A DNA stretch of 64,000 nucleotides from Thalia democratica (GCA_965202585.1 OZ241829.1:16492001-16556000), one strand, 5' to 3'; positions 1 through 64,000 are shown, counted from the stretch's first letter. Numbers and translations are program-made. Notes: generated from the letters alone by a model not told the origin.

Positions 1-576
1 AAAGATATAGGTGTTAAACAAATAAATAAACTTTTTGTAATGAAGTAGAATAATCTTTTTTTTTTTTTATGTTTTTCACATTTGTTTTAAACATTAAAAT
101 TTTTACTATAGCTTTATAAAATTAGTTTCTAAAGCTTAAACTAGTCAAATTATAAAACTACCAAAAAATTGTGGTTACAACTAACAGTTTAATGAAAAAC
201 ATAAAATGTAGAAAGATAAAAGTAATTCATATAAAGCTAGATTTTATAACAAACAGTGGCAAAATGTAAAAAGTAAAAATATAGATCTACAGTCTAGTAA
301 TAAGAAAACGCAAAAATAAACATTTTAAAATAAAAAATCAATATAAATCAATATAAATACCTGTAAATTCGAAAATACTTAGGTAGAGTTTTTATACAAA
401 AAGGTAGGAAAAAAATTACAAATAGACTATTTTATTACCCTTTTATAGTTCAGTTAAAGAACCAGAACATTTTTTTATAATTTAAACGTTTCTATTAAAT
501 ATTTTAAAAACTCTTTTACAATGAGATTTATAAAAATATTAAACAAATAAATTATTTTTATAAGTATCGAAAATAC

Positions 577-3500: not shown

Positions 3501-5047
3501 CTTCTTGGTCAATTTGTTTGTAAAACTTGCTTGAATATGTTTTTCCAATAAACTTTTTGTGAACAACATCAAAGAACGAAAGACAAAGTTGGTACTCATT
3601 GTCCATCGCATTTGTTACTGAATTATGCTAGAGAATATACAAATCAGCTTGAATATTTATACTTTACTATTAACTTTACAAAAAAATACTTAATAAGTAT
3701 GGAAAGTAAACCAAAAATTGAAACATATGTTGTAACTTGAAGCATCTTGATAAAGATAAATAGATATTTTCTTTTACCAAGATGGTCTTGGATTTAACAT
3801 TTGTCTATTAGAAGTCTCTTGTTTGAAATTTCTTAAATTTATATTGTAAAGACTAAAACATAAATGGTTTGATAGGTTATGTATTAAGGCAACAGGAGGG
3901 GAAAGAAAACAACTTTTTGTATGTATTTTTATTTGTGAGTAACAGTTAAAAACACCTTAAAGAAGAAACCAATGAAACTATCAAACTGCTTATAAATTCA
4001 AAGCTACTATTCAATTACAAGCAATCAAAGTTTGATACTTTCATGGATTTCTTATTAAAAGCACAAATTAAAAAGGAGAAAAAATATATATTATACTAAA
4101 AATCTATCTTCTCTAAAGTTTTTTGAGTAATTAGTTGCAAATTATCTCAGTTTAACTTTTATAAAGTTTTAAATGTATCTTGAAGAGATATTTTTAACTA
4201 ACAACATAGACAAAAAAATATCATTTTTATTTTTAACCATAACCTATAAAATTAACTTTTTTATTTATTTTTATAACATTTTTAAAACCTATAAATTTTT
4301 AACCATAACCTATATGTTTAATGTTTTCCAATTTTTAAAATACTGCTAGAAAAAATTAGTATAAATTTAGTGTGTTTAGCTAAAAAAACAAAAAAATGGC
4401 AAGATATTTTGTGAACTTTTAAATTTCTGAGAAAATTTAGGAAAAATATTGCAGTCCATAACTACTCCACATCAAAATAAAACTAAAAAATGTTGGTTTT
4501 CTAACAAAACTAACTTACAGTTTATAATTTAGGGTTTTATTTACACGGTAATATTTTTTTAAGAAAAGTTTTTCAACCCCCAAAGGTCTTAATAGCATAG
4601 TGAGTACAAAAAAAAGCTATTTTTGTATGCATTTTTCTGAACGTTTTAAACAACTCTCTAAAAACTTTTACATTTTTTTGTAGAAAAATATTATTTTACT
4701 TTTAAAAAACTGTTTGTATAATTTTTATGTATATTTTAAGTTAGTTCACTCTAACTTAAACTTAGTTTTTCAAAAAATTGGCCCAGGTTTACACTTGTAC
4801 TCAAATAAAAGTTATAGTTAGATCATTTTTTAAACAGAAACTCATGGTGTATAAAATTTTTAAGTTATATTTTATTTATACTTATTTACAAACTAACCAG
4901 AGCTCTAAAGGAAGTCACTTTGTCAAAATGCAGCTGATATCCCATGCTGTAAGGTAAAGAGGAGGATTCAGTCGAGGCCTCAATGCCAACGTTCGATTTT
5001 AAAAGCTTCAACCATTCTTGGCTGACTTGATTCAGTTTTTCTTTCAT
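577..5047 (-). CDS. NPHP4: Nephrocystin-4, 5' exons (partial; continues beyond window start)
   Basis: Phase-consistent GT-AG exons 5047-4898, 3627-3487, 3179-2977, 2449-2382, 2025-1864, 1109-947, 685-577. They translate to MKEKLNQVSQEWLKLLKSNV...EYQLCLSFFDVVHKKFIGKTY...LNMPIYFHST...IQIYRGSPKALL...HLMVENHFYAHSDKIPGL...SFEKKL...YVAERRLE, collinear with remembered NPHP4 N-terminal motifs (VSFFDVTYRHFFGRTW, FNEPLYFHTS, LRLYHGTPRALL, HLLPENLLVSGLQQIPGL, ILERRL). Confidence 0.92.
1147..1401. mobile_element. Non-autonomous TIR element (CAGGGTTGCCA family, hAT-like), intronic in NPHP4
   Basis: Degenerate left end TAGAGTCGCCAC, right end GTGGCAACCCTG, internal TTCCAGG repeats; related copies at 18786, 57700 and 62555. 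Confidence 0.7.
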
Positions 5048-8000
5048 GATTAAGTAATGACTTTTTACATTTGGTATTTTTAATTTAAAAGTAGCTGAGT
5101 TTTATCAAATAATTTGTTCAACTAGTAGTAAAAAGTATCAGTTTTAATATAAAAATGTTTTTATATATTCTTTAATAAAATTTTATTTACAAAAAACAAA
5201 TTTTATTGTTCAAAAGAAATACATTTTTAACAGCAAAATAAATTTGCAAAGTAATAATACTACCAGTAACTAAATAAACCATATTTTAATATACATATTT
5301 TGATTTAAAAGCAAAAATCAGGGTGGTCACTGCATTATTTTTTTTTAGAAATTCCTTCCGAGCTTTTTTTCTTCCAGCTTTTTTTAGTAGAAGTTTTATT
5401 GTTTCTTTTCAGTAAAAATAAAAAGGTTAAATTGTTTTCAATATAATTAATTACTATAAGGAATAAAAAACAACTTTTACTGTTAATAAACTGAATACCA
5501 TATATACTTAATTATATTCAATAGTTATTTCTTATTGAATCTAATTTGCATTATTTTAACAAAGAATTAGTTCAAAGCCTTAAGTTTTTGAATAGTGTAA
5601 GTTAAAAATCAAGGTTTTTTTAATTACAAATTCCAGGTATTTTCAAGTAAAACTTTTACCCTGCTAAATTTTATGAAACATATAAAACTTTCCTTATAGT
5701 AGGAAGATTAATGTTATCAGTCACAACTATAACTGATTTAGTCAATGTAGAAACTAAACAACACATTTAGTTCTACATATTTTAGATAATGTACTAGATA
5801 ACATTCAAAGCCTTTATAAACTAAAAAGCTAAAAGTTTTAAAAGCAGAAACTCAACAGCAACTAAAATACACTATCCGATTGTTCAATTTTTTCTACCAA
5901 AAGAGTGACATAAATAAATCTTTTAGTAGTTTAAATCAAATAATTTTATAATGTTTATTAGTTTTTGTTATTATTGCTTTTAATAAAACATCAGACTCAC
6001 TCTTCTATTTACAGCGATAAGCATTTTTTGAAGATCAAGCAAGTAATTTTTCATCACCTGTAATTCTACCTCCCCCTTTAAAACTGACACTAAACTAACC
6101 AAAAAAAACTATTTATTTGGCTGAAAAAAATCCCTTGGTGACACGCCATTTGGTAAACACTCACAAAGTTGAAGTTTCAACACTAAAAACCAAAAAGATC
6201 ATGGAAAATCATGAAGCTCAAATCCCCAAGCAAGTATTTATCCATGCTGCAATGAAAAACACAACAACAGTCCAATCATGTGATCACTGCCACCAGTTTT
6301 TGTTAGTATTGACTTGACATAAAACTAAAAAAATAAAGATATAAGAATAATAACAAAAAAATTATATTTTTTTTAACTTTTACTTTTACCTCTAACTTGT
6401 ATTGAAGAAAACAAAAGGAACTGTATTTTTTTTCCAAGGAGAAGTATTTAATATTTAATCTAACACAATAACAAAAAGATAACAAACAAAATATACACAC
6501 AATTAACATAATTTATTTCAGTAATGTATAACATTGACTTTTTCATTAACAAGACAATCATTTAAAAGACTAATCATGATCTACTGCACATATAACTTGA
6601 TAAATTTTCAATACAAATATAGCATACATATAGAAGCACTTTAGGTCTACTCAGTGTACTTTTTAAACAAAATGTTTTTATAACTATATTCTAATAGTTT
6701 TTATAAGTTTTAGGGACATTCGACCAAAACTTTGGACTCAAATACCTAAAGCAGTTTAGGGAAAGTCTTGTTCTAGGTCTTTTAGTAATAAAATTCATTT
6801 TATTAGAAAACCTTGTGTTGTATTAGTGAATTAGCAAGGGAAAATCCATTGTACTCTACATCATATACTTTCATACTACAATACATAAAATAATTTTAAG
6901 TGAGGCCTGATGAAAACTTTCAAATTTTCAAATCCATTGGTCACACATAAAATATTTTATCATTATATTATTTGACTGAAAAGTTTTATGTTTGTATTAA
7001 AAGCTTGAATTAAAGATGTATTAACCACTGTTAATGCAAGAGAGCTTGCTTTGCAAATAGTGGTTTTAACATAATATTTTAACAAATAATAAAAAATCCA
7101 CTGTATGAAGCAAAGCAGCCTAAATATCAACCAAGTTACTAATTTTATATAAACAGCAATTCAAATACATAAAATATTATTTAAAAAAACTATCACAAAA
7201 ATTATAACGTTTGAAATTAAGATATCTTGTTGTTTTTAGTTGTTCCTAAGATAACAAATTTTTAAATTTTATTTTCTTTTATAAAATATATGATATAATA
7301 AAATATAAAAATTTAGAGGTTCAAAATTACTAAGAAAATTAAAAATAATTTTATCTATATTTGCTTTTTAAAGTAAAAAATATATCATTTTATTTTTTGG
7401 TGTAATAATAGTAAGAAAAAAATTCGAAAAACGACAAAAATGTTTTTTATTAGAAACTCACTTTGTATTCAACTAACTTTAAATTTTATTAAAATGTTGA
7501 CCTTTGACATAAGTTTTAATCAAAGTTCAAGAAATTTGTCAGTTTTTAAGAAATATAAAAAAACATGTTAAATTTTAATCTTGCCTTGTACATTTTTTTT
7601 TTTTTTTTTTTTATGGTAAAAAAACATCAGTCTCAAAATGAAAATGTAATGTAATATAATTTATGTAAATATAAGTACGAGTTGTTTTTATGTAATTAAA
7701 ATATTTTAAAATTTTATATATAAATATATAAAAATAAAGCAGCGAATGATTTAGTAACTAAAGTACAATTTTTATTTTTAGTATAACTGGGCACAAGTTA
7801 TCACATTTTAAAATGGTTATGAGCACTTTTAAGTTATTTACATTTGTAAGTGTGTGGGCTGTGCATTTGATATATTTTTCAATGTCTAAATCCTAAATTC
7901 TCAAGTAAAAAGTCGTATTAAGCCAAACTAAAAATAAAATTAAACACGTTTATTATCAAATTGGTTGTAAAATCCATAGTAATGTGATTTAATTCTATGA

Positions 8001-19187: not shown

Positions 19188-21362
19188 TCTTATTAAAAGG
19201 TTTTTATGTACTTATACAAGTAATAACTCGGTAGTCTTTCATGTTTTCAATAATTTTTTTTATAATTGAAATGACTTTTGTCAATGCTAGCCATTAGTAT
19301 AAATTCAGTATCAGTTAACTGAGTCCGATTTTAAAGCAAAGGTGTTTCCCCTAATATTTGCTGAATCATCAATTTAAGTTTTTATAATTTTTTTAAATAT
19401 TTATACCCTTAAACCTAACCCACCTTATCCAAAATATTTTCAATTTTTTTATTTATACCCTTAACCCTAACCCACCTTACCCAAACATATCAAAAATTAA
19501 TTATAACATGAAATTTTTATAATTTTTGTATGCTGACTAAGCAAACATTGGGAGATTTCCGTCAGATCAACAAAAGGACTTCAGTTAATACTAACGAATT
19601 TAAACAAATACGTTGTTAGATCTAAAAGCTTATAATATCACCATCTAAAACTAGTTACTCTTGACAATTTAAATAAAACACAGCAACATGTGACAACATT
19701 TATAAGTTTGTCACATAAGCTTACTTAATGTTTGTGTTTTAAGCTTGAATATTCATCACCTTTTAAAATCACCAAAAGCTATAGACAAAATGATATCTTA
19801 ATACCAGGTAAAAAGAATCAAATACTTGTATTATACATGAAATATGATATTTTAAAGTTTATTTATAATAAGCTTGACTAATAAAGAATTTAAAAAAATT
19901 GTAGGTTTTAAAGCTTAAAAAGTTGCATCAGTGAGCTTAGAGATAAGTTAAAAAATAATAAAGGAAATTAGATTTATTTGTGAGTTTAAAATATACTGAC
20001 ATGTAAAAGCAGAACAAGCTATTAGCATTAAACCTTTAATTTATAACTATAATGCTGTACAAACGCTTGTTTCACAATAATCTTTTTTAATCAATAACTC
20101 AAGCTTATTAAACAGTTCTAATAAACTCTTTAACTTCAGGAATAAATTGCTTTTTAGATTAAGTAAGCAGTTTAATTTTTTTTTCAAAGTTTGTTAAACA
20201 GGTTCCCTCACATTTTATCAAAATATCTTTCTTTTTAATTTAAAGTCAAAAAATCCTAATTAGAACTTTTAAATTGAAAAACAACTAAATCGCGTTGACA
20301 ATATTAAGCTTAAACATATGCGATATCTTGTTTAATTTAAACAAATAAATTTGTAAAATTTTCTTGTGTATACCATCATTTTGTATCTGAGAAGGTTTTT
20401 ATACAGTTTTTTATAAATATAGATTAATTTTTATTTTCTGTAAAATTTGAGCACTTGTTGTATTCGAAGTTATTTAACTATATTTATTTTTACTTTTTAC
20501 TTTTATTAATATTTTTCTGTCTACAAATTATTTTAGTTTCAATTAATTTTACTTTTTTTAAGTCTATTTTTATTAAGTTCATAGTTGACTGCCAAATTAT
20601 TATATATACGGCTTTATTTTGAAAGCTAAACTAAAAAACAGCCTCAAAATAACAGTTTAGTGTTTTATTTAAGGTAAATTTATAATAAATTTAAAGTAGA
20701 AAAAGTTCAGTTAAAAGTTGTTTACGTATTGCTAAATCTTTTAATAAAATGTGTTTCAAAAGTTTGAGAGTTTTCTATGAAAGACTAAAGAAAAAACAAC
20801 TGCTGATGAAATGTTGATTAAAACATATGCTGAATTTATTTAATTTTATGTTACTTATCATTAAGCACAGTTCCAATACATAAAACTATATTAGTAGCAT
20901 TTAATGGACAAATTTGGAGTAGATTGTGAACAAAATTAAATTAATGAAGTCTATTTTGCTCCAAACTAACTATTGTTAAGCATAATAATCAAAGTGCATT
21001 GATGTTTGTGTAAAAAGATTCAAATTATATTTTCGTAGTTTAATACAAGAATTTTTTTTTAATGAGTATAAACTATTTTTTTTTCAACTTTAAAATATTA
21101 AAATATACTGTACATTGTACATTAATGGTGTTTAGCATAAACAAAACTGCAAATAGAACATGCTATTTTCATAGAGTATTTAATTTGTTAAAATTAGATT
21201 ACCAATTATAAAATATTCAATTAGATTAGAAGAATGTTTTTTAGAACATAGGAACGACCCTAATTGATTGTTTTATGTATTTTATGTCATTCTGTTTTTA
21301 AGTTTGCTGCTACATTTTAACAACGTTAACATTTTTACAAACAGTCTGTTTTAGTGTTAAAA

Positions 21363-24300
21363 ATGAATAGTGAGATGAATTCGAGAGAAGAGAGAGGTTA
21401 TCCTGAAGTTTGCACTTACACAATGAAAAGTGAGGACAACTATGGGGATTACCAAGAAGGTAGTGGTTTGTACATCTGCTCAAAACTAAAGTTTTATTTT
21501 TATTTATAAATAAAACATTTTGGTCAGCTTGATTCAGAATATAACGAACATTAAGGTCACTATCAAAGGTTGCGTTAACATTAAAAATAAGTTTTTTAAG
21601 AGAAACTTCTAAGTTAGTATGTGTTACCAGAAACTTTAAACATACAGATATGGTCCATGGAAGTAGGATGGGTCAGGAAATGAGCGCCCGTGGAAACAGT
21701 TGTCATGGTGACCTGGAAGGAAGTTACTACGGAGATCAATATGAAGATAGAAGGATGAAAGTGTTGAATATGCGTGCAAACGTAGAAGAAGCTATTCAGA
21801 AGGTAGCGGAAGAAAAAGCGTTGGAAGAATGGGAAAAAGAAGAGCAAAAACGAGTTGCTAAAGGTATAAATTAAATATAATCATTACTTCTAAAACAATT
21901 AAGGAAAAACAAAGTTCTGTTTCAGTTTTTGTTGACTTATATTTACAGAGTCTAAAAGAAAAAAAGGGTAACCTGGAATTTTCTTGCTGATCAAATTATT
22001 TCCTATAGTATACTTTTTTTTAATGATACAAAATTTAAACTTTAACAGAAACGTTGAAAAAGCATATTTTGAAGCAAGATGAAGGCTTTACAGAGCTTGA
22101 ATATGCATTGAAGAAGCTTAAAATGAATGCAGCTCAGGAAGAACCTATGAGTTTTGAAAACTTCCAGGTTAGTTGGTTTCACTGTAATGTAGTTGGCTTA
22201 ATTGGGATCTAGTTTTCCTTAGCTTGAAATAAAACATTTATGCAGTTTAACAGTTTACGTAGGTGTTTAACGAATCAAATTTTCTCAACAATATAACTCT
22301 AAATTAATTTAAATTTTATTTAAAATTGACTAAAACAAAGTTTTTCAATAAGGGAACTTATTGTGAAGGAAATGATTGTGATAAAGATGAAATCTACCAG
22401 GTAAAGAAAAACAAAGAATTTGGTGGATCTTACTCTAAAATGGTGAGTAAAGAATTTGTGATTAATTATAAATTAAAAAAAAAACGATTTTGCAACTTTT
22501 TCATAAATAAAAAAATACACGTCTTAAGTAGTTTTATCTTATACTTTAAAACTATATAATGAGGTTTTTAAGCTTAGGTAGTCTTCAAATGTGCTGTTTT
22601 AAAATAAACTGGACTTTATCGAAACCAAAATGCATAATATAAACGTATATAGGTAAATTTATCAAAAAAATTTAACTTTTTTTTTATAGCACAACAACTA
22701 TAATGATGATAAAGAATCAAAAAGAATTAGTATTCAAATGCTTAATGAAAGAAGACGTTCAATGTCTAAAGATTATCTAAGGTTTGCTGGTTAAATAGTA
22801 AGAGTATTATCCTCGTAAACTATTCTAATTAATACTTATCTACTTCTTTAACAAATAAAATAAAAAATTTGACATAAGAAAAAAATTATAATGCCAATTT
22901 GTAATAACTAAATCAAATTTTCTTCAACTGTTTTCTACTAAAAGTAAAAGACAAGTATTTGATTTGGTTTGCCAGTAAACTTTTAAAGGGAAGTATAACA
23001 TTTTTAGGTTGAACTAATTTTTGTAAGTTATGAATTTGTAGTTTATAGCATTTCAAACCACAAATTCTAGAAGAAGAAAACCTTAAAAACTTTCAAAATG
23101 TTTTCTTTGTTATCTATAACTTGTTTTTTAGTAAATTATGTTAGTTTATACTATATAGGTTAAATTCTTATTTGTCTTTAAAACTGAATATTTTGATATT
23201 GTATTCAGCTTATGTTAACGTGTACAACTTTGAACTTGTTTAAGATTTAAAATTAGATTTATAACAAACATAACAAATAATGTTATGTAAAGCACCTTAT
23301 GATATCGCTTATACTAGATGTAAAAAAATATGTGTTTATTGAAGGGTGTCGGAACAATTTCAACAGACGATGAAAACCTTGAAAGAGCAACTTGATGATG
23401 GATTACCGGAAAATGCATACCACAAGTAATTTTCTATTTTGATATCTGATGTACTTCTAAATGATAGTCACAATCGGTATAACTTTTAGCTGTTAGATAA
23501 AAACTATATAGAAAACAAGTAAAAACTTAATAACATTTTTCTTTATAACGTTTACAATTTAAATTTTAAGTAATAAAACAACCACAAAATTTAGGTCAAA
23601 TATATATTTGTTTTCTTTCGAAATTAAAATTGTTCTTATCCAAGTTTACATACAAAATTAAGTCAAACGATCCAGTTACAAAAGTGCAGAGCCGTAGGAA
23701 TACTAAGATTTTCCAAAGAAAACATAACACTGAACTTAGTTTGTACACAAATGTTAAAGTCACACGTATATAATGCATGTATGCAATTTCAGTTTGAGAA
23801 TGAAAGAAATGATGAACTTTCAAAAGTACAAGCAAGAGTTTCACAGGAACTTTTCAAAGCTGAACATGAAAATCGAAAAGAATGAAAACGAAATTGAAAA
23901 ACTTCACAGGAAGTATCAACCGCATTACACAATTGAAGACGCTTACTTTGAAAAGGTTAGTATTAAAAAAAATGAGAAATTTACCGAGTTTCGCTTCTTA
24001 AAATTGAAGTTGTTATAAAAACAATGTTAATTACCAAGTTTTACTCTGAGATGATTTGTAAACTGAAGGTGCTGTACGTTATAAAACTTGTTTGAAATAT
24101 ATAACACTTACAACTTTTCTTTACTTTTAATAGTTTATAGACGTCAACAGCATTATTTTGATAAAATTTCGACATAAATAAAATCAATCAGGGCATCGAT
24201 GGCTGTGATGATGAAGACGTTCACCTTCTTAAAAGAAGCAAAGAATTTGGTGGAAATTGTTCTACGATGGTAAGTTTACACTTTTAATTATTTACTCATT

Positions 24301-27300
24301 ATTCGCACATATAAGAAATATATTGTCCTATTTACGAAGTTGCAGTTACTTACTTTGTTACTATTTAAAAAATTAAAAATTGTCATTCACACCAAATTGT
24401 TATCGAGACACTCTGAAAATGATACAGAAACAACTTGTTAATTAGCATTATTGTCGGGAGGGACATTTCTTGTATTCAAAATATATTTGCAACTTAAATT
24501 CACACTGTTTTTAATTCTAATAGTTTAATATTTAAATATTTTCGAATCGTTAACATTGAGACATAAATACCAAAACCAAGAGGCTTGCTATGAAACAGTT
24601 AGTATGAGCAGAGTTAACTTATTTCATAGATTATTGAAACTTTTCATGTTTACTATTAGAAAATCGATGAAGTTCCTGCTGATCCAAAGCTCACTGAAAA
24701 CTTTTTGAATTTGAAGAAGCAAATTGAGTTTAACAAAAAAAAGTTGGAGAAAATAAACAACGGACTAGTGCATGAGCTTAATAAGAACAAGTTGCTTGAT
24801 GAAGAAGGAGTTTACCAAGTTAAAAAGAAAAAGGAATTTGGTGGAGTTCCTTCTATGATGGTAGTTTTTGCAATTTACTTATTATTACTATTCTCAAATT
24901 AGTGTAACAAAAATAGCTCTGGTGTTTATAGATAGAAGAAAAGGGTATAAAGCTTTTGTGTTTGTAATTGAAAAAAAATCGATCGTGCTGTTTTGAGAAA
25001 TTTTTTGTTTTGTATTTGTTCTTATACTGAACTACAGTATTAGTTTAGATATAATCTATTAGTCTTTTTTTTAAGCAATTTTCTTAAAACACCCTTCAAA
25101 ACTTAAAACAAGCACAGTCGTCTTCAATAACAAACATTTTTTAAACTTTTGATAACACAAAAGCCACATTTTAAATGCACTTTTTTATCTTACTTCTTTT
25201 TGACTTTATTCTAAGTTGTAACACTATCTTAAAGATATCAATTGCAATAATTCTGTATACTCCTTATACGTTGAAAAGAAAATTTGTAATGTTAAATTGT
25301 TTTATAGTTTATTGAACCTTTTCATTTTTAATATTAGCACATCGATGACATTCCTGCGGATCCAAAACTCGCTGAAAACTTTTTGAATTTAAAGCAGCAA
25401 ATTGAGTTTAATAAAAAGAAGTTGGGGAATATTAACAGTGAAGGAGTTAAAGATCAGCTTAATAAGAACAAAATTTTTGATGCTTATGGAGTTTACCAAG
25501 TTGAAAAGAACAAAGAATTCGGTGGAGCTTCTTCTAAATTTGTTTGTTCTTTAAATATTTATTTATCGTCTTTTTTAAACGTTGTTTATAGAATAGAATT
25601 GCTGTAACATTAAAAACTGTAGCAGTCTTAGATATCGTGAATGTAAGAAAGGGTATAAAACATTTTATTTGTAATTGGTAGACAATAAACTTTGGAAATT
25701 TTTCCTTTTGTATCTATCAGCACATACTAAGCTACTAGTTTACGATTAGAAAATTTCTTTTGTATATTTAAAAACCCTTAAATTAAAATTTAAAAAAATG
25801 AATCGTTTTCGATAAACATTAGTTTTAAAAAATATAGATAAATAGAAAAGCTACTATGTTTTTACAAAGTGCATTAATTATGATTTTTCTTTGTTATCTT
25901 ACTTCTTTTCTAGCACTAATGAAAGTGACTTATTTTTCAGTTTTACTGTATACTATTTATTAAAATTTTTAATGTTTACCAGAATATCGAGAACAATTGT
26001 TCTGATTACGATTTAAAGCTTAAACTCCGTGATCTTTTGAAGGAAAAACATGAGATCCAGGAAATGATAAAAACATTGCAGGAAAATTCTGAAAAGTTAG
26101 TTCATTAACTGAATTTAAAAGTAGAAGGCTAATATTTTTTTTAAAGTTTTTGTTTTGTTAAATAAGTAGTTTTAGTCAGTATACGATAAAACATAATAGT
26201 TATTTAGGTAGCTACAAATAGCTAAACAAAATAGTTATAAAGCTAGTAGTACTTTTTAAATGAAATTAATAAAAATAAATAAACAATTATTAATTATCAA
26301 AAGAGTAATAACTTGTACAAAGTGAAAATTAATAAGTGAATATCTTATGTTACACTTGATTTGCGTAAATGGTAAGTAATTTAATATCTGAAAGACCATA
26401 ACAAAATTACATAATTCATATTCGTTTAATAATGTTGTAATTAGATACGGTAAGAACTATCTTCAAAGGCTATTTAACTTGGAAAATGAGCTGACAGCTT
26501 CTAAAATAACAAAAGAACGTTACGAAAGGTAAGTACAAACTTTAAATTAAATACAATAAAAAAAATAATACAATTTTTTCAGTCGGTTATTGAGTTCAGA
26601 TGTACGTACGTTCGATACATGCAAAGTACAACAAAAACGAAAAAATCACATCGTGACGTGAATACGTTTTTAGTGCAGAACGTTTTTGTACAAAAATAAC
26701 TTAAAATTTACTAAAAATAACACACAAAACTCATGTCCATAAGTTATTTAACAAGTTTTAAATTTATGAAACTTTGATAGTTCTTTCTTAATATGCTTAC
26801 TAGAGTAAATGAAGTAGTTCCCCTTGCTTAAGCATCATTTTATATTATATATATATACAAGTATAACTTTTGTATTTTTTTAGTCTGATGCAAAAAGAGA
26901 TAAAAGAGTTCGCACATTACAAAGGAGAATGTAACAACAAAAACTTTGATTTGAACAACCAACTGCAGTTGTTGAAGATTGAATTAGAGGAGCATGGGTA
27001 CGAAGAAGAACTCGATCAAGCAGGAAAGTTCAAGATGAACAGAAAAAATTCTTCTGGATTAGTAAGTAAATTTAAATACTAATTAACAAAACTACTAGTT
27101 GTTGCATGCATATTATTCAGCAATTTCCAAATTAATCACAAGAATAATCTAATTTCTATAAGATACACTATTTGAATACTTCGTGATACAGAACTTACTC
27201 CTATTATATATACAAATACAATTATTTTTAATAATTTCTACTTTAGATTTGCTTTATCTAAATCTGAAAAATTGGTAAGTTTTACAATTTGTCCTATACG

Positions 27301-30300
27301 TAATATATTTTAAAAACATGGAGCTTTTGCATACTTTAAAATTTATAAAATTTTACAAATTATTGTTTAAAATGATGCGTCGGTGATTTTTTTATTTATT
27401 TACTGAAACATCATTAACACATAATAATAGTAACTAAGCATCTGCATAATTACCAGTGCAACAAAGACTATTCCACCGAGAAAAATGAAGAGCTCCGTGA
27501 ACTTTTGATGAAGAAAAACCAGCTGCAAGAAGCTAAGGAGACACTGAAGCTCAACTCCGAAAAGTTGTTTAATTTTATTAAATTTATATTAAAAACTATT
27601 TTATATCAAAACATATTCAAACATAGTTAAGGACTTTCGTCACTAATCAAGTTTACAGTTCTTTGCAAAAAGCAAGTAACAATAAGTACTTGGTAAATAA
27701 TATCAAGCAAATAAAAAATAACTCTAATGTTGTGAAGCTCAATACTAATATATAAAACATTAAACAGTACAAATCGAAGTTATATTCATCAAATATACAT
27801 ATACATGCTTATAGATTTATTTGATTATATAAAAAACAATAGGTTTATACAACCGTTTCGTATATGATATATATAACCTCATATACTCATCAGTAAGCTA
27901 AAGTTTATTTACAATGTTAAACAGAAATTTAGAATTAAAAAATTTATAAGTATTACGACGTATTAATAATGAAGGTTTTTGTACAGAAAATTAAGTTTGA
28001 AAATACGCTAACTTGTTAGTTTAAGGATTTATGCATTTTGAATTTTAGTACGTCATAATACTTATAATTTCTTAAGTTTCTGTTAAACATTGTTAATAAA
28101 CTTTAACTTTACTGATGAGTATATGAGGTAATATATCTCATATACGATTACGATCATTAAAATCATTTATTTTTTTATATAATCAAATAAGTATATAGCT
28201 CAAACTCAAATTGTCGAGCGCTATCGACCATAACTTTTTAAAAAACTATTAATATAAGTTTATATACTTATATTCATATGTCAAGAAAAATTAAGTAAGT
28301 AACAACAAACAAACAGTAAAGCATAATAATATATTTAGACTTGGTGAGGATTTTCGACAAAAGCTTTTGGACCTTGAAAAAGTATTTCAAATTTCTGGAG
28401 TATCTAAAAAAAATTACAACTCGTAAGTAAAAACTTTCAAATAAATATAGTACAAAAAGTCTATAATTGCCGATTATAGTTAGTGAGAAAAATCTTAATA
28501 GTTTTTAATTTTTGTTGTTGCTTTGAAATATTTCTAGTGGCGGTGAAAACATTACCAGAACATTCAAAACTTGTTGTTTCTGAAAAGAAAAGTTATACAT
28601 AACTTTTTTTTTCAGTCTTTTGATGAACCAAGCAGACAGATTTTCGAAACACAGAGAAGAGCAATCCAGGAAAGACTCGGAGTTGAGCAAGGAGCTAAAG
28701 GAGATCCAAGATGAGTTGAAGAAGCTGGGCTACGAAAAAAAAATTCATCAAACTGAAAATAAAAAGGAATTTGGTGGAGTTCCTTCTATGATGGTAGTTT
28801 AAACAATCTTCTTGTTATTACTATTCTCAAATTACTGTAACATAAGTTGCTTTAGCATTCGTATTTGTATAAACAGTAAAAAAAAGTATGACTTGTTTCT
28901 TTTCGTAACTGAAAAATAGTCGACTTCACTGTTTTGAGAAATGTTTGTTCCTCCGTACGTTTTTGCAACTATACTGAGCTATACTTCTAGTGTTTTCTAT
29001 ATACTATTAATACGTTGAAAGGAAATTTTCTAGTGTTAGCTTGTTTATATTTGATTAAAATTTTTCATGTTAGCTCTACGAAGACATTTCTGCTGATGCA
29101 AAACTCCTCAAAAACTTTTTGAACATGAAGAAGCAAATGGAGGCAAACAGAAGAATGCTCGAGAAAGCTCACTCGGAAGGTGAAGTAAGTAAACTTGCAA
29201 TGAACAAAGTGTTTGACGGAAGTACAGTTCATCAAGTTGAAAAGAAAAAGGAATTTGGTGGAGTTCCTTCTATGATGGTAAGATCTTTAAACAATCTTCT
29301 TGTTATTACTATTCTCAAATTATTGTAACATAAGTTGCTCTAGCATTCATATTTGTATAAACAGTAAAAAAAAAGTATGACTCGTTTCTTTTCGTAACTG
29401 AAAAATAGTCGACTTCACTGTTTTGAGAAATGTTTGTTCCTCCGTACGTTTTTGCAACTATACTGAGCTATACTTCTAATGTTTTCTATATACTATTAAT
29501 ACGTTGAAAGGAAATTTTCTAGTGTTAGCTTGTTTATATTTGATTAAAATTTTTCATGTTAGCTCTACGAAGACATTTCTGCTGATGCAAAACGCATCAA
29601 AAACTTTTTGAACATGAAGAAGCAAATGGAGGCAAACAGAAGAATGCTCGACAAAGCTCACTCGGAAGGTGAAGTAAGTAAGCTTGCAATGAACAAAGTG
29701 TTTGACGGAAGTACAGTTCATCAAACTGAAAAGAAAAAGGAATTTGGTGGAGTTCCTTCTATGATGGTAAGATCTTTAAACAATCTTCTTGTTATTACTA
29801 TTCTCAAATTACTGTAACATAAGTTGCTCTAGCATTCATATTTGTATAAACAGTAAAAAAAAAGTATGACTCGTTTCTTTTCGTAACTGAAAAATAGTCG
29901 ACTTCACGGTTTTGAGAAATGTTTGTTCTTATGTACGTTTTTGCAACTATACTGAGCTATACTTCTAGTGTTTTCTATATACTATTTATACGTTGAAAGG
30001 AAATTTTCTAGTGTTAGCTTGTTTATATTTGATTAAAATTTTTCATGTTAGCTCAACGAAGACATTTCCGCTGAAGCAAAACTCATCAAAAACTTTTTGA
30101 ACACGAAGAAGCAAATGGAGGCAAACAGAAGAATGCTCGAGAAAGCTCACTCGGAAGGTGAAGTAAGTAAACTTGCAATGAACAAAGTGTTTGACGGAAG
30201 TACAGTTCATCAAGTTGAAAAGAAAAAGGAACTTGGTGGAGTTCCTTCTATGATGGTAAGATCTTTAAACAATCTTCTTGTTATTACTATTCTCAAATTA

Positions 30301-33300
30301 CTGTAACATAAGTTGCTCTAGCATTCGTGTTTGTATAAACAGTAAAAAAAAAGTATGACTCGTTTCTTTTCGTAACTGAAAAATAGTCGACTTCACTGTT
30401 TTGAGAAATGTTTGTTCCTCCGTACGTTTTTGCAACTATACTGAGCTATACTTCTAGTGTTTTCTATATACTATTTATACGTTGAAAGGAAATTTTCTAG
30501 TGTTAGCTTGTTTATATTTGATTAAAATTTTTCATGTTAGCTCAACGAAGACATTTCTGCTGAAGCAAAACGCATTAAAAACTTTTTGAACATGAAGAAG
30601 CAAATGGAGGCAAACAGAAGAATGCTCGAGAAAGCTCACTCGGAAGGCGAAGTAAGTAAACTTGCAATGAACAAAATGTTTGACGGAAGTACAGTTCATC
30701 AAGTTGAAAAGAACAGGGAGTTTGGCGGAGCTTGTTCAACGTTGGTAAGTAAAAAATTTAAACAACAATAAATATTACACATTATTTACTAATAAGAATT
30801 GTTTTTACCTTCGAATAAAACACTAAGTTAAGTTACTTCTTTACAGTTTAAAAAATGTCTTATAAATACAACTTTTAAATACATTACTAGTAGTAGATAA
30901 ATTAGTTTTAAGTAATATATAGTACTCCAAAAGACTTATTCGTAATAAAAGCGTCCTACGTGAAATGTTTAAAGTTTCAAAATTATTACACATAACACAC
31001 ATGAGTCCGTCGTTATCGAAATTTCGTATGCGCGTTAGAGACTGAATAGGTTGTTTGAAAGGTTAGCGTGTTTTTTGTCAATGACACTGTACATTATAAC
31101 CAGCGCAACCAGGAATCTGATGAGGATGCCGAACTTCGTGAGCTTTTGATGACAAAGAATCAGCTCCTGGAAATGAAGCAGGCAATGTGCGACAATTCTG
31201 ACAAGTTAGTTTTGAATGCTTTTTAAAATGTAAATTACAAATGTTTAATAACAAATGTTTGTTGAAACTAGATAACTACGTAAATAATAATCACACAAAT
31301 GATAAATACGTAACCACATATATTTTACGAAGATTAAATACTGTAACATAACACACTACTATATGTTAAATTTAAAAAGTAAAACATAATAAACAAGTAA
31401 AAAACTATTTACAAAATTAAACTAATTTATTCCAGACTTGGTGAAGATTACAATCAGAGAATTTGCTACTTGAATACAGAATATGCCGCTTCTCGTTTAA
31501 CTAAAGAATGCTACAACGCGTAAGTATAGAAAAAAAAAAACTTAATTACAAAAAAAAAATATATCTATGATGTGCAAGTACTAAGTATTTGTTGAAACCT
31601 TTATGGAAATATATTTAAACATACGGTATTTATGCGCAACTTTTGATCATAAAATGTTCAATTTCAAACAATACAGGACTGTTTAAAAAAGTATTTTTTA
31701 TACAATTTTTTTAGTAATAAATATTATTACTTTCGCGTCATTTAACCGAACTAAAAAATTAAGATTTTTTATATATCAGAGTGTTTAGAAATTTTTTTGC
31801 ACAAAAACAACAAATTTAACCTTACAGTCACTATTACTTTGACTTTGCAGTTTTACCCTTAGGTTCAAGTTACCATTATGTTTAGATGTAACAGGATATC
31901 AAACTGCATTTGATTACTGTTTAAATTTAATAGAGAGTTTTGAGAAACTCTTGTTCATCATCAGTGACATTCATTCTAGCCACATTTGCTGCATTAAACA
32001 TGTTATTCTAGAATAGACATAATTTTTTGATTGTTTTATGCAAAGTTTTTGTTTAAGGTTGTTTTCTTCTCATAATGTCTTTTCATAATCTTAAGTTCAA
32101 GCAGTTAATTCTCATTATAATTTAAACATTCTCTAAATATTTAAAATCTAAACTGTGTTCAAAAGTTTAACAAGTGTTTAAAATAATTTCTAAAGCATAA
32201 AGTTATTCATGTGTTACATATTTCTTTATGTTTGTTAGTGTTTTCATTTGCTCTGTAACTAAGAATGTGCTCATTCATAGGCGTGCCTAGTTTTATATAA
32301 AGTTTATATATAGCTTTATATTAGCCCTAAAAATGTTTCAAAACATTATTAGTTAAGTAGATGTTTTTATTTATTATGGTTAACAGTGAAGTTTACAGCA
32401 AAATTTAACCATACTTACAATTGTGGGTTAAACATCATAAAAAAGTACAATAAAAATCAAGTTATGCAAGTATTAAGTATCTGTAGATAATGTCATGAAA
32501 ATATGTATAAGTATAAGTTATTTATTTCCAAAGTTTAAACATAGAACATAGTACTTAAAACATGTGTTTGAGAAATGTTTCACAAACAGTATTTTTAATA
32601 ATAAACATAATCACTTTCGTATGGTTATTACTTATAAACGAAATTTTTTTTTATATCAAAGTGTTAATAATTTTTTTAATATATTGAAAAACATTTAAAA
32701 CCTTACAGTCACTTTTGCCATAAATTTACATGGTTAACCTTAGGTTTAAGTAAATATTATATTTGCGAAACTTATTGTTAAGATTTCCAAATGCTTTTAG
32801 CAACACACTGGTGTTGTTCTATTTCAAATGATGAAGCCAAAATTGAATTTCGCAAATATCGTACTGTTTTTTTTTTCCTTAAAAGATGTTGATTAGTAAA
32901 AGTTAATAAGTGGTGTATGTATATAGCTCCAAATTTGAAAGTCCTTTTTAAAATTAGGTCTATTGACCTGACCATATTCATAAGTGTATTTTTATCCGTT
33001 TTTTTAAATTTCTTCTCCTTTTATCGCTGTCGACCTCATAAATATTTTTCATAGTCTAACGAACAAAGAGATAGACACGTTTGCAAGAAACAACGAAATT
33101 CGCAAAATAAAAAAGATGGAGTTGAACAAGAAACTGAAGAAGGTTCTAGATAAATTGAAGGAAATGGAAGAAAAAGTTCATCAAACTGAAAAGAGCAAAG
33201 AATTTGGTGGGATGAACTCAAAGATGGTCGGTTTGATTCGAAAATGTAGTCTTATTAAGTTGATTTGTGTTGTAGTTAAGTTACAATCGTTTGTAAACTT

Positions 33301-34548
33301 CAAATGTTGTACAGTTTACTTGATTGGAAAATAGTTTTAAAATAAAACATTTACAACTCTTCTTAACTTTTTATGTTTGTAAATTATTTTTATCATGAAT
33401 TGTTTAGTTGATGTAGAGTTTTATTAGTCTGCTCTCGACAACAAACTACTTGTTTGTGAATTTTAACTTGATCAATACGCACGGCTTTTATTAATCATTA
33501 ATTAAAAGTAGTTCTTATTTTCATAAAAACAAATAAATAACGTACTGAGATATTATTTCACTTAAGTGTTCTTATCTACAGCTTTCCTATGAATATGACT
33601 GGAAGTTGCGACAAATAGATGCTTTAAAAAAGCAAAGAAAGCAATATATCCAGACAAAAAATTCCATGGAAAAAGAACTTGCAGAGTAAGTTGCTGACTT
33701 TTAAGTAGTTTGTAGCATCTGAATTTTTTAAAATTTACCAACATCTGAGACTTTCTACAGTACACAAAAAAAAGTTAGACAAGGAATATAAGAAAACACT
33801 TTAGTTGGTTACAAGCTTGTTTCTCTCAATTATAATAAAAAAACTTTTTTATTTTTTTCAGAAACGAACAGGCTCATCACGAGAAATTGAAAATGTTTAA
33901 AAAAGAACATCTTGCGGGATTAGTTGGAGGTTGTGCCGGGTAAGTTGTATATATTTGTGCATATGTTTATTTACAAGTACTTTCTGTTGTCAAAACATGA
34001 TTCAATACTTTAGCAGAAATTTATGCAAAACAACATAACAAAATTTTGTACTCTTCCACATTATGTAAGACAAATGCTCTTTTGAAAAGTATTGAAAACC
34101 AACCATGTATTCGTGTATATACGAGGAATATTAATGTAGTAGGAGTAGTTTAGGAATTCCAGTTAAAATAAAAGTTTCTTTTAAATTGTTTATATTTATT
34201 TTTTGTTTAATTTAAGTTCTCACAAATACTCTCTGTGGTAGTTTTAGTAAGTTATAAAATTTTTAAGTTGATGCTTTTGAGTTGAAACGAAAAAAAAAAG
34301 TTTATTTATGCATAATAATAGTTTACTATTACATGTAACAAATTTTGACAGGTCTACTTAAAACATAAACAAAACAATTTTTTTTGTGTTTGCTTCGACA
34401 AAATTAATCAGTACTTTTTTATTTCAGTTTTTATTTGAAAAAGTATGAAGACTATAAAAATGAAAGTTCCAAAAGCGTAAAGGGAGTTGAAGATCAGATT
34501 AAGAAGTTGGATGAGAGTATCAAGAACTTGGAGCAACAACTAGAGTAG
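21363..34548 (+). CDS. Uncharacterised ~1186-aa modular coiled-coil protein with repeated KEFGG motifs (candidate polyprotein)
   Basis: 26 phase-consistent exons: 21363-21459, 21648-21863, 22049-22167, 22353-22442, 22690-22781, 23345-23425, 23793-23955, 24192-24269, 24660-24860, 25338-25541, 25983-26095, 26445-26528, 26884-27061, 27457-27563, 28339-28422, 28616-28793, 29074-29277, 29563-29766, 30052-30255, 30541-30744, 31104-31204, 31436-31519, 33055-33226, 33582-33685, 33862-33939, 34428-34548. Total 3561 nt, open to TAG; AATAAA at ~34604. Confidence 0.85.
27810..28200. repeat. Intronic inverted repeat (~150-bp arms), each arm carrying a hammerhead-like core
   Basis: 27810-27965 is the approximate reverse complement of 28049-28200. 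The left arm (- strand) reads CTGATGA-GTATATGA..TCATATAC-GAAAC; the right arm (+ strand) has GATT in place of GAAA. Confidence 0.7.
28755..30744 (+). repeat. Four near-identical 489-bp exon+intron tandem units
   Basis: Exon starts at 29074, 29563, 30052 and 30541 (exact 489-bp period); the introns differ by only a few bases. Confidence 0.97.
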
Positions 34549-35611
34549 AACTTGGAGCTACGATTAGAAAATTATTAAAATAGGAAATCGTTCAGATAAC
34601 TTGAATAAACCTGCCTTACATATTTGTTGTTTCTTGTAAACTGATTATTTTCTTTAAGTTAGACAAATCTTTAATACGTGACGGGCAACAATACATATTT
34701 TTATTAAAATATTTTATTTAAAACCAGCAGATGAAAAATTCAAATTTTGGCTCTAAAAACCTTGACTATTTGTTCTCATAAATTAAATAAATGTCCTAAC
34801 CTTACAATAAGAATGAATTCGATTACTGTATATTACCATTTTTTTAATGGCAAAACATACATCATGTTGGTACAAAGACTTTATTAAGTTACGCCTGATA
34901 AGTTTTTAAAGAAAACTATTATACCGGATTGGCTTATCGAGGTTATAAATCGTGTACGTGTTTTTAATATGATTCAATGATGAAATGAAATCGAAAGTTT
35001 TCTAAGTTCAAATTTTTTATTAAAAAAAAAAACAATAACTGTTTCAATATATGGCTTTAGGCTAAGAATTATTAGTAATTTATTGGTACTTTAATCAAAA
35101 TATGCAACAATTGAATTGGTCATAAGCTAGCCTCTTATTTTAGATTTCATATTCACTTTCTTAAATGGAAATATTATAATTAAGTTAAAGAGAATTTAGC
35201 ACTAATATCAAATTATAGATTTTTATTTTGTTATTAATACAACTTTCATTATTTACTTATGATTATTTCAGCTATTTTAATTAGAGTAATATAAAATAGT
35301 TTTAACGACTAAAAAAAGATAATCTACAAAAAATTTAACTAATTTACACATACATTCATTAAAGCTTTCCAAATTACTTATGATAAAGTAATATTTCAAC
35401 ATTCAATGTTATTTATATTTAAATTAAGTCATTGTATTATGCCCTAATTTTTACTTTCATTGATGAATATATACTAAAAACTATAGGCTAAAACAGTTTG
35501 GTTTAAAAAATCAGTTAACAAGTTACGAATGAATATATATATATATATATATATATTTGTTAATCTAAGTAAAGCAACTAAACAACTATGTGTTAGTTTT
35601 AGCCTGTAGAA

Positions 35612-35880
35612 CAGGGTTTCCCAAACTTTTTTCAAAAAACCCCTTAAAAGAAATTAAAAAAGCTATGGCCTCCTCAAACAACATTAAAATAAAAAACTTC
35701 TATTAAAACCGCCTAAGATCTTCTTTTTGCTCTTTATCATTAATTCCAGAATATTTAAAGCAAGTTTCAAATTATGACTATACACCCCCTGTGACCCCTT
35801 AACTGTTCATTGCCCCCCTTTGGTATTTTTGATGCTCATGTCCCCCATGGAAGCCACTTGGCCCAGTCTGGGAATTCCTG
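35612..35880. mobile_element. hAT (Charlie-like) MITE
   Basis: TIRs CAGGGTTTCCCAAAC / GTCTGGGAATTCCTG; 8-bp TSD CTGTAGAA / CTGTATAA. Confidence 0.85.
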
Positions 35881-36074
35881 CTGTATAATAAATAATTTTT
35901 GCTGAAGTTTTATGCAAAGAAGATAAAAGTACGGCTTATTTGTGATTTGAACAAAGGCTGTTGATCATAGTAGAAAGTTAATACATAAAGTAATAATGTT
36001 AAGAAATAAGAGGCAGAAAAGCAGATTTTAGAACAAATTAACATATATAATAAAGCTTAGTTGAATATATACTT

Positions 36075-43699: not shown

Positions 43700-46600
43700 A
43701 TGAGTACCGACTACGATACTGATGACTATTTTTATGAAGAATTTCAGCGTAAAGTAAGTTTATAATTTTTCAAAGGGGTTTTTAAGCTTTTTAATTTATC
43801 ACAACAACATTATTGAAGACATAAAACTTGTAATTGTAATTGTATTGAACAAAAAAACGAAAACGAAAAGATGCTCAAAAGATGACTTGGTCCAAGGACC
43901 TGGGTGCACGAACAGACCTCTCGGTCTTCGAGCGCACACCTAACATAAATAATTAATGATCTAAAAAACTTTACACATAAGAATGTTAACTCTCAAATTA
44001 AAAGCTATCAAAATTGGACTACTTTAAACAATTTTTCAAACAACAAATCTTCAAATAGGTGTATGTAATAGTATTTGACACGTAACAATTACTGTTAACT
44101 TTTTACGAAAACATTTTTTTAGATGACCGCCAGCACACTTGCGAAGAAAGTTGTTGACGTGAAAAGTGCTGGGGACGAACAGCTGGTTTATTTCTTTGAC
44201 GACAACTCAATCAGTGTGGTGGACCACTCAGGAAAAACACTCGCAGCAAAAAGGTATAAATTTGTTTCATGCAACTTATGAAAACTTTTTTAATTAATGC
44301 TTTTAACTACTCCGTTTTGTACTTTTTGTAACAAACTTTCACGTGCTGTGCTTGCTGTTATTTTGGCACATGAAGGTCCAGGTTTCGGCTCTGATGACTT
44401 TCGCTGATGCTTTCTTATTGGTCGTATTACAAATGAGCGTACCAGATGTCTTGCTGATTGAACGCATATTTGCACGGAAACTAAACAACCTGATCATATC
44501 AGCAAAATGTAGCTTCGTGGTAAAACATCATGTCTGTTTGTAGCTCTTTTCGGTTACGCCCAACTAACAAAACTTGCAACTATCAAAACTTGTCTTTTAA
44601 GACTTTCAAGCTAAATTTAAACTTATCCGTAAAGAATTTTTCCAACCAACACAAATACTTTACTTTTTTTTCCAGGTTTGCCGATAAAATTTCCACGATC
44701 GCGGCGTGCCCCGACCACTTCTGCGTGTTTTTCGGCGGCTCGTTCAAATGCTTCAAGATCGAGGAACACCGCCGCCTGGCGGACAGAAAGCTCATGGTTC
44801 AAATATCAACGACGACCCTGGCGAACGTCACGTCGCCTGTCAGGTACGCCGACGTGCAGGACACCGCGTCGGGCTTGGTGGTGGCTTGGTCGGCCAACAA
44901 CGGGTCGGTGGGCTTGTACAAACTGAAGGCGAGGACCACCGAACACTTGCACTTGGGCGAACACGGGGCCGTCTGCGCCCTTTCCCTGTGCCAAAACGCC
45001 CGCTTCCTCGCCTGCGCCCACCCCGACCAGATCAAGGTGTTTTCGGTGAAAGGCGGCGGCCTTTTTGGCGTTTTCGGCTGCGACGGGGTCAGTGCGTCCA
45101 CGACCAACGACCTCCTGTTCAGCCGGACGTTCGAGGTTCTGTCGTACGTCAGCCGGGAGGGGAGGATGTTCTTGTACGAGCTCAACGACCTGTACTTCCA
45201 GGAGGACAAGAGTGAGCCGGTGCCGCCCCGAGCGGTTGTTAATGTCGGGGGTTACCCCGGTGCGAGAGCGCTGGAAGTGGACTACAAGGGGGAGAACTAC
45301 CAGGCGGCGAGGAGGGGGCGGGTGATTGAAGCGGTGGTCAACGGGGACGCGCAGAAAGTTAGCCTGACCAAGTACAACGTGAACGAGGATGGTGAAATAC
45401 GTCAGACGCAGATCAGCAGTAAGTTTAATATTTGTTTGGGTAAAAATAAATAAGTAAATTATAAATATTTTGTAGCCCACCATAAACATGAATTTAATTA
45501 AATTGATAAAACTGTAGGTACGGTTATAGTTGCCCATCCCCTATGATACAATTTCCTAAAACTTTCATCAACATTTTATTGGTTTTCACTGTCTTTGATA
45601 TCAGTTGTTGTCATTAGTGTCATCAATATTTAAGCGCCTTACATAGAATTGACATTAGTCACTGTGACTTAAACTGGTTCATTCCCCCATTTTTGACTTA
45701 TAAGAAATTATACTTTGTCAACACTTTGTGACTTTTTTTGAGCTGTATTTAGTACAAAAAATAGAAATCTATGCTAAACGAAATAACTTGGGCTTAATAA
45801 GTGCTTATTAGGCTAATTAAGGTGATAAAAGGTGATAATTTGAGGTGACATGTTTGGGTTATTTGAGCATATTTTTGCTTAGTTTTGCTTTTTTTATGCT
45901 TACTTTTGCTTATTTCTGTTTACTTTGGCTTTAACATTGTCACCAATTTTTTTTGACTTATTGTGACTTAAAATGTTTCAATTTGTATTTTTATTTCCCT
46001 ATCAGCATTTTGTTTAATATGATCTCCTATTGCCTGTTGGTTTTCCCAACCCCGTATGTTTTAATGGTAATTGTTAAACCGCAAAAGCTTTTTAAAGGGG
46101 CACATAGCAAATGGGAGTATTGCTTTTGTTTAATTAAACGCAGGCTTTAATGGTAAAACTTTTCCAAATCTTATCTTAATTTAAATGCACAATGTAATAA
46201 AATGACGTAAATATATTAATGTGAGAAAAATGTGATAGTTACTGCTTAAGATATGAAAAAGTAACCTACTAGTATAATGTGATTTACTACCTTTGTCTTA
46301 TTCAAGTGTTACTTGAAAGATAGGTATTTCTTAATAAATTTTTTGAAGTAGTCGTTTATAACCTACCTTTTGATTAACAGCTATTTCAAGTAAATCTGAA
46401 GTTATTTTAGTGGTTTTTTAGTAACATACGTTTTAATATTTACTTATTAATTTAATTCACAGTTAAACTCAATTTTGTTAATAACCCATCAGTATAAATA
46501 TTGAAATAATCGCCAACATTAACTACATAAATTTCCCATACTAGTAAACTACCCAGCTATTCTGCCTCTTACTAGAAATTGTCCCCTGATATCCAAATTC

Positions 46601-52636: not shown

Positions 52637-64000
<11,364 letters not shown>

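Follow-up and report, generated by a model that had tools for sequence, protein, structure and literature searches.

An apparently undescribed gene family whose products alternate predicted helical modules with a 17-residue di-glycine motif: possible docking array or polyprotein

What purpose might be served by a protein that presents the same short di-glycine motif ten times between predicted helical modules? The question is raised by a gene in the window, by which we mean the whole 64,000-nucleotide stretch of DNA that was analysed. The original prediction interpreted the gene product as a cytosolic precursor cut at Gly-Gly into helical peptides, some of them potentially conjugatable, and offered a repeated docking motif as the alternative. 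As far as sequence can tell, this alternative fits the data from the gene family better than the polyprotein reading. Our best reading, to which we assign a probability of roughly 0.5, is that of an uncut, presumably cytosolic, multivalent scaffold that offers a putative partner one docking site after another. The gene family itself is real and apparently undescribed.

The gene model was built from a reading of window positions 20500-36000 together with a list of candidate exons, and its splicing is predicted. The 26 exons, separated by introns with GT-AG borders in 25 of 25 cases, form an open reading frame of 3,561 nt running from an ATG at 21363 to a TAG at 34548 and encoding 1,186 aa (138.9 kDa). 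In order, the model comprises an N-terminal region, a motif exon, module A1, a second motif exon, two type B exons, A2, A3, four further type B exons, A4 and A5 (Table 1). The highest 19-residue hydrophobicity window of the whole predicted protein reaches only 0.62, which gives no hint of a membrane helix or signal peptide; the spliced product of about 1186 aa without a signal peptide that had been proposed is hence borne out at the level of prediction. Two intronic stretches (window 27514-28515 and 31522-32523) have very high contig depth, indicating high-copy repeats.

Table 1. Features of the predicted gene, in window coordinates
Feature	Position	Strand	Content or basis
Whole predicted gene	21363..34548	+	26 exons, 1,186 aa; exon homology to paralogs
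Exon 1, with N-terminal motif GYPEVCTYT (21396-21422)	21363..21459	+	Pattern and homology among copies
Exons 2-3 (21648-21863, 22049-22167)	21648..22167	+	Tyr/Gly/Ser-rich stretch, then predicted helix
Exon 4, motif-only mini-exon	22353..22442	+	Motif 1 = 22392-22442
Module A1 (22690-22781, 23345-23425, 23793-23955)	22690..23955	+	Terminal motif remnant lacking FGG
Exon 8, motif-only mini-exon	24192..24269	+	Motif 2 = 24219-24269
Two type B exons (24660-24860, 25338-25541)	24660..25541	+	Motifs 3 and 4 = final 51 nt of each
Module A2 (25983-26095, 26445-26528, 26884-27061)	25983..27061	+	Motif lost
Module A3 (27457-27563, 28339-28422, 28616-28793)	27457..28793	+	Motif 5 = 28743-28793
489-bp tandem repeat, four type B exons, motifs 6-9	28744..30744	+	DNA repeat and exon model
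Type B exons of the repeat	29074-29277, 29563-29766, 30052-30255, 30541-30744	+	Exon model
Module A4 (31104-31204, 31436-31519, 33055-33226)	31104..33226	+	Motif 10 = 33176-33226
Terminal module A5 (33582-33685, 33862-33939, 34428-34548)	33582..34548	+	No motif; ends at stop codon

The module layout agrees with what had been claimed, type A being a three-exon module with intron phases 0-2-2-0 and type B a single 201-204-nt exon of phase 0-0, and in the exon model every one of the ten motifs ends at a phase-0 donor. To these units we add a third, the motif-only mini-exon (exons 4 and 8). Type B is a truncated type A, since it aligns with the third and last exon of the latter. The strong divergence described for the module bodies holds for the type A modules, which are 21-44% identical at the protein level within the window gene, but fails for exons 17-20; these constitute a 489-bp tandem repeat with a DNA identity of 96% and a protein identity of 84-94%, and this central repeat is young. 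Shuffled copies of the protein contain [KR]E[FL]GG at a rate of 0.0115 per protein, against the ten motifs observed, which are duplication products and hence non-independent events. The junction at the end of exon 13 (A2) is devoid of the motif and, since the motif has been lost there, one of the 11 products released by cleavage behind each GG would be 248 aa long.

The conserved unit extends well beyond GG alone to 17 residues, V-x-Q-V-E-K-N-K-E-F-G-G-x-x-S-K-M. An iterated profile recovered 108 motif copies from the fetched loci and the window and none from reversed controls, with GT following directly after 92 of the 108. Removal of 14 tandem units and 18 near-identical copies leaves 76 non-redundant motifs, in which V(-11) is kept in 68, E(-3) in 71, F(-2) in 64, G(-1) in 69, G(0) in 66, both glycines in 61, S(+3) in 66 and M(+5) in 50, figures that are inflated by a profile seeded on copies with GG. 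GG is present in 10/10 motifs of the window gene and absent from 15/76 across the family; in ENA fragments, selected by the same profile, it is found in 35/41 and the serine in 85%. Among 23 remnants, that is, exon ends without FGG, the final Met persists in 16 and the Ser in 7, and for this reason we regard the serine as part of the motif and the methionine as largely an exon-end effect. Codons at the fixed positions vary in their third base; therefore, the constraint acts on the protein. AlphaFold2, applied to a paralog exon with a 51-sequence alignment, returned a confident helix over residues 2-50 and the motif as coil (pLDDT 50-58), which would place the motif in disordered linkers between modules.

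The window gene has numerous relatives in the same 802-Mb genome. A search with one exon gave 39 matches at E <= 10, and a DNA pattern for the motif occurs at 35 sites, compared with none for the reversed control. For two DNA patterns, every match (35/35 and 16/16) falls at a family locus or on a small contig with family exons. Fourteen of the 35 sites form an array at C5:18.55-18.86 Mb, mostly about 14.4 kb apart; the array (C5:18.55-18.87 Mb; L052-L055, L069-L074) consists of short, near-identical members of the family, at least 14 in number, whose N-terminus differs. The family has about 20 or more genes, namely 20 gene models (the window gene and 19 paralogs) plus the 14-copy array. The paralogs were modelled by a small gene finder trained on the window gene, and some of their exons are surely wrong; its recovery of 26/26 window exons is circular, since it was trained on that gene. 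They share the plan of three-exon modules split by motifs, and in most the terminal module is motif-free. Between paralogs, dN/dS in exon pairs that are reciprocal best matches with an identity of 45% or more is 0.24 outside the motif and 0.30 inside it, the exclusion of pairs below 45% favouring conserved exons; the value of 0.24 indicates that the family is under purifying selection.

Relatives elsewhere are fragmentary. A profile search of 1.84 billion representatives yielded 50 matches at E <= 0.001, of which 48 are single-exon fragments of the family and 2 are unrelated, and gave no full-length or named relative. The eight family matches that were examined are unnamed ENA proteins on contigs of less than 1.6 kb. 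When 54 family proteins were compared with the fetched family loci, as opposed to the whole genome, the median identity to the best match was 64%, which suggests that the ENA relatives come from related species. A protein search for longer relatives of the motif exons found none, a weak negative. No family was recognised in the original prediction, and this still stands: there was no Pfam match above cut-off in 24 window exons or 27 paralog exons, the best PDB sequence matches had E-values of 0.19 and 0.98, the best Atlas score (0.81) was at chance level and Foldseek found no match to a helix-plus-motif model. Likewise, none of 593 pattern matches in JGI metagenomes was confirmed, 15 DNA pattern matches lacked surrounding family exons, and literature searches on the motifs and related topics, screened by title or abstract, returned nothing relevant. 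The neighbouring SelO gene (window 52649-63998, minus strand) has a near relative, P0060, that is 71-96% identical over 11 exon matches and falls with Ciona and Phallusia in a quick tree (SH-aLRT 100), which makes an ascidian the likely host. The family is likely to be ascidian-specific.

Taken together, the earlier interpretation is partly supported: no known family accounts for the gene, the motif is under protein-level selection and it is located in predicted disordered linkers between modules. Conjugation is unlikely, and several features speak against the named proteases. The earlier interpretation made no mention of a second motif, GYPEVCTYT, which lies near the N-terminus and is more conserved than the GG motif. 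Its core YPEVCTY is invariant in 12/12 aligned copies, which were picked by pattern with 2 divergent copies of the 13 originally found left out; an unbiased search gave 24 matches, 18 of them at E <= 2e-4. Apart from noise, protein searches with this motif returned a single LysM chitinase (E 1e-5), again a weak negative.

How the GG motif has multiplied is informative, for it has been copied independently of whole modules, in mini-exons, in truncated modules and in 18-residue tandem repeats. Spacings between successive motifs (n=84 in the 20 models) correspond to a whole module, 116-160 aa, in 35 cases, are 115 aa or shorter in 41 and longer in 8. Fifteen of the 84 are no more than 35 aa, and 13 of these short spacings represent 18-residue tandem units. 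At the DNA level these are tandem units of 54 bp that correspond to the second half of the motif, found in four paralogs and numbering 23 when the first full motif of each locus is included. The coding frame is free of stops in all 23, whereas the other two frames have stops in 16/23 and 14/23; dN/dS is 0.55 in the coding frame versus 0.73 and 0.91 in the others, and the units keep Ser in 23/23 and GG in 18/23. Two ENA proteins bear the same 18-residue repeats. Conversely, single motif sites have been lost in gene models that are otherwise open. We infer that what is copied most often is the motif together with the helix before it rather than an intact module, and it is mainly for this reason that a docking role is preferred.

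In such a scaffold, modules predicted to form helical hairpins would hold the many copies of the 17-residue motif apart and display them, and the motif likely binds a single partner protein. The serine at +3 probably belongs to the site of binding and may act as a switch through phosphorylation, and GYPEVCTYT, present once per chain, would bind a second partner. A conserved footprint that spans both sides of GG counts in favour of this reading. Against it, the motif is no more constrained than the module bodies between paralogs (0.30 versus 0.24, as above), and the ancestral layout, in which every module has a motif ahead of it but the last has none behind it, is that of a polyprotein; the motif also matched no docking motif among those tested.

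Indeed, that layout is what would be anticipated if a dedicated protease cut the chain at EFGG/x or EFG/G, releasing helical modules of 67-248 aa. We consider such processing somewhat unlikely, though a serious contender: the motif sits in a linker predicted to be unstructured, with E(-3) and both glycines strongly kept, yet GG is missing from the 15 motifs noted above and, given the short spacings, cutting would generate many 18-68-aa fragments of partial modules. If the chain is cut, the enzyme is possibly one of the genome's divergent SENP1-like proteases. There are 62 C48 matches in the genome, 13 of them high-scoring and on contig C8, 4 of these with stops. A cluster of some 13 SENP1-like genes in which WLNDE is altered, and which have an upstream 220-230-aa frame devoid of Pfam matches, lies at C8:12.5-21.7 Mb (L100-L102, L104-L106, L108, L109, L111, L112) and C7:7.83 Mb, and the SENP1 stretch WLNDEII reads LINDVVF in 9/9 aligned copies, with the catalytic Cys kept in 8/9. 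We take the Trp of this stretch to be one of those that position the di-glycine in SENPs. A further gene on C2 (L107:2929-5265) has a single 779-aa frame in which a charged N-terminus and a predicted coiled coil are combined with a SENP domain that bears a similar substitution, and a canonical SENP is encoded on C9. Separately, L115-L117 contain frames of 510-1001 aa ending in an Ulp1 domain, likely transposon genes.

These divergent enzymes keep cleavage plausible. In SENPs, conserved Trp residues position the di-glycine and processing specificity is set by residues after GG (PMC4281951), and because of the latter the conserved Ser is compatible with cutting. Nevertheless, the extra SENPs have possible alternative substrates in divergent SUMO genes ending in GG: L120, L123 and L131 are intronless and end in QHGG, QEGG or QSGG, and several genes carry tandem SUMO-like domains (L141-L147), their matched exons ending without GG. 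Divergent and tandem SUMO genes could therefore explain the additional proteases instead. Many polyubiquitin-like arrays with an intron within each unit were also seen (L127, L128, L132-L140, L148-L149), on at least C5, C9 and C10.

Recognition poses a further difficulty. No ubiquitin-like (beta-grasp) fold precedes the GG, as judged by Pfam on 24 exons, an AlphaFold2 model consisting of a long helix and the lack of a PDB match, whereas Ulp1 needs a broad SUMO-binding surface (PMC3216068). Nor do SUMO and ubiquitin tails resemble the motif in sequence: on an ungapped motif profile, four SUMO/ubiquitin tails from the genome score from -25 to -42, not above the random 95th percentile of -16, against a motif minimum of +6. 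For these GG sites, three features speak against the proteases originally named, namely the lack of a ubiquitin-like fold before any GG, a Glu at P4 and the motifs without GG. Conjugation without a ubiquitin fold likewise finds no support, and GG is never found at the end of the last module. KLHDC2 is a reader of C-terminal GG, and any GG-ending products would more likely be degraded via a C-terminal degron than conjugated. The more specific proposal, of host-encoded polyproteins in the ascidian lineage that are cut at a linear EFGG/xxS by expanded, re-tuned SENP1-like proteases needing no SUMO fold, we regard as unlikely. Were the chain cut, SENP-type proteases would be seen to cleave a cellular polyprotein at a short linear site.

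Comparison with known precursors shows both likeness and difference. Polyubiquitin and SUMO precursors, which are cut by USP, UCH or SENP enzymes, similarly have tandem units, Gly-Gly near the junctions and an extension after GG, but the present family has helical units, a last unit lacking GG, a 17-residue footprint and sites that are lost singly. Gly-Gly-X is the maturation consensus of African swine fever virus (ASFV) and adenovirus, and ASFV pp220/pp62 and the adenovirus precursors are also long, with several GG-X sites between non-ubiquitin domains (PMC4584293); in contrast, the window family consists of spliced animal genes with Glu at P4. Met, Ile or Leu occupies P4 in 0/76 motifs. The adenain rule is P4 = Met/Ile/Leu, and a search without a positive control found no genome match to the adenain family PF00770. 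If processing is true, a host SENP-like system would be the cellular counterpart of viral Gly-Gly-X processing. An ATG8/ATG4 substrate was rejected: Phe-Gly is present, but neither Pfam nor AlphaFold2 gave the ATG8 ubiquitin-like fold. Nematode polyprotein allergens share tandem helical units of similar size and a conserved junction motif; they are, however, secreted and cut at basic sites, and no sequence match was seen.

Alternatively, the motif may be a structural joint, its glycines ending a helix and letting the chain turn or pack on the neighbouring module, in a rod or filament that is neither cut nor bound. AlphaFold2 does locate the motif at helix ends, and the 18-residue tandem units could be read as short helices broken by GG, in a model of low confidence (mean pLDDT 45.6 for the tandem-repeat exon). 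Modules joined without a motif nevertheless exist, the motif-only exons have no helix to cap and a simple joint needs no fixed V, E, F and S over 17 residues; we thus judge this reading quite improbable.

Highly improbable, in our estimation, is that the motif's first half, V-x-Q-V/T-E/D, is a site for the dynein light chain LC8, forming an LC8 array beside coiled coils. An LC8 gene is present in the genome, and Q-V/T-E/D resembles the LC8 anchor and its acidic +2 position; in LC8 sites, a mid-sized residue is needed before the Gln, which is nearly always kept (PMC6607443). Here, Gln occurs in only 38/76 motifs, the residue at -1 is Tyr in 19, Cys in 17 and His in 15, and the better-kept EFGGxxS would be left unexplained. 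Several other resemblances, namely aldehyde dehydrogenase ELGGKS, MACPF, RHIM, the beta-TrCP and KEAP1 degrons, calponin and tau repeats and the histone H3 tail, were dropped for mismatches of register or composition.

Multivalent motif-array scaffolds are what the family, in our preferred reading of an uncut docking array, works most like. ASCIZ, with its many LC8 sites, is an example of such a scaffold. The resemblance lies in many copies of a short motif in disordered linkers and in a variable copy number; unlike ASCIZ, the present motif is not an LC8 site by published rules and alternates with helical modules of about 100 aa. Should the scaffold reading be correct, the family would provide two new linear motifs whose multiplication and loss can be followed with unusual clarity.

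By eye, the middle of the module, LKEQLxxGLSxKEYNxL, resembles SHOCT (PF09851), a two-helix unit with a conserved Gly and Glu (PMC3581485). The stretch is split by an intron; scans of 24 single window exons, 27 single paralog exons and the family loci gave no match to PF09851. Near family loci, intronless frames that we take to be kelch-like and RING-like were observed (L077-L079). Elsewhere in the window, exons of a gene on the minus strand at 475-5101, which had no Pfam match in the three frames scanned, look to us like nephrocystin-4. A WD40 beta-propeller gene that could be assigned to no family with confidence has GC-rich exons on the plus strand at 44123-45453.
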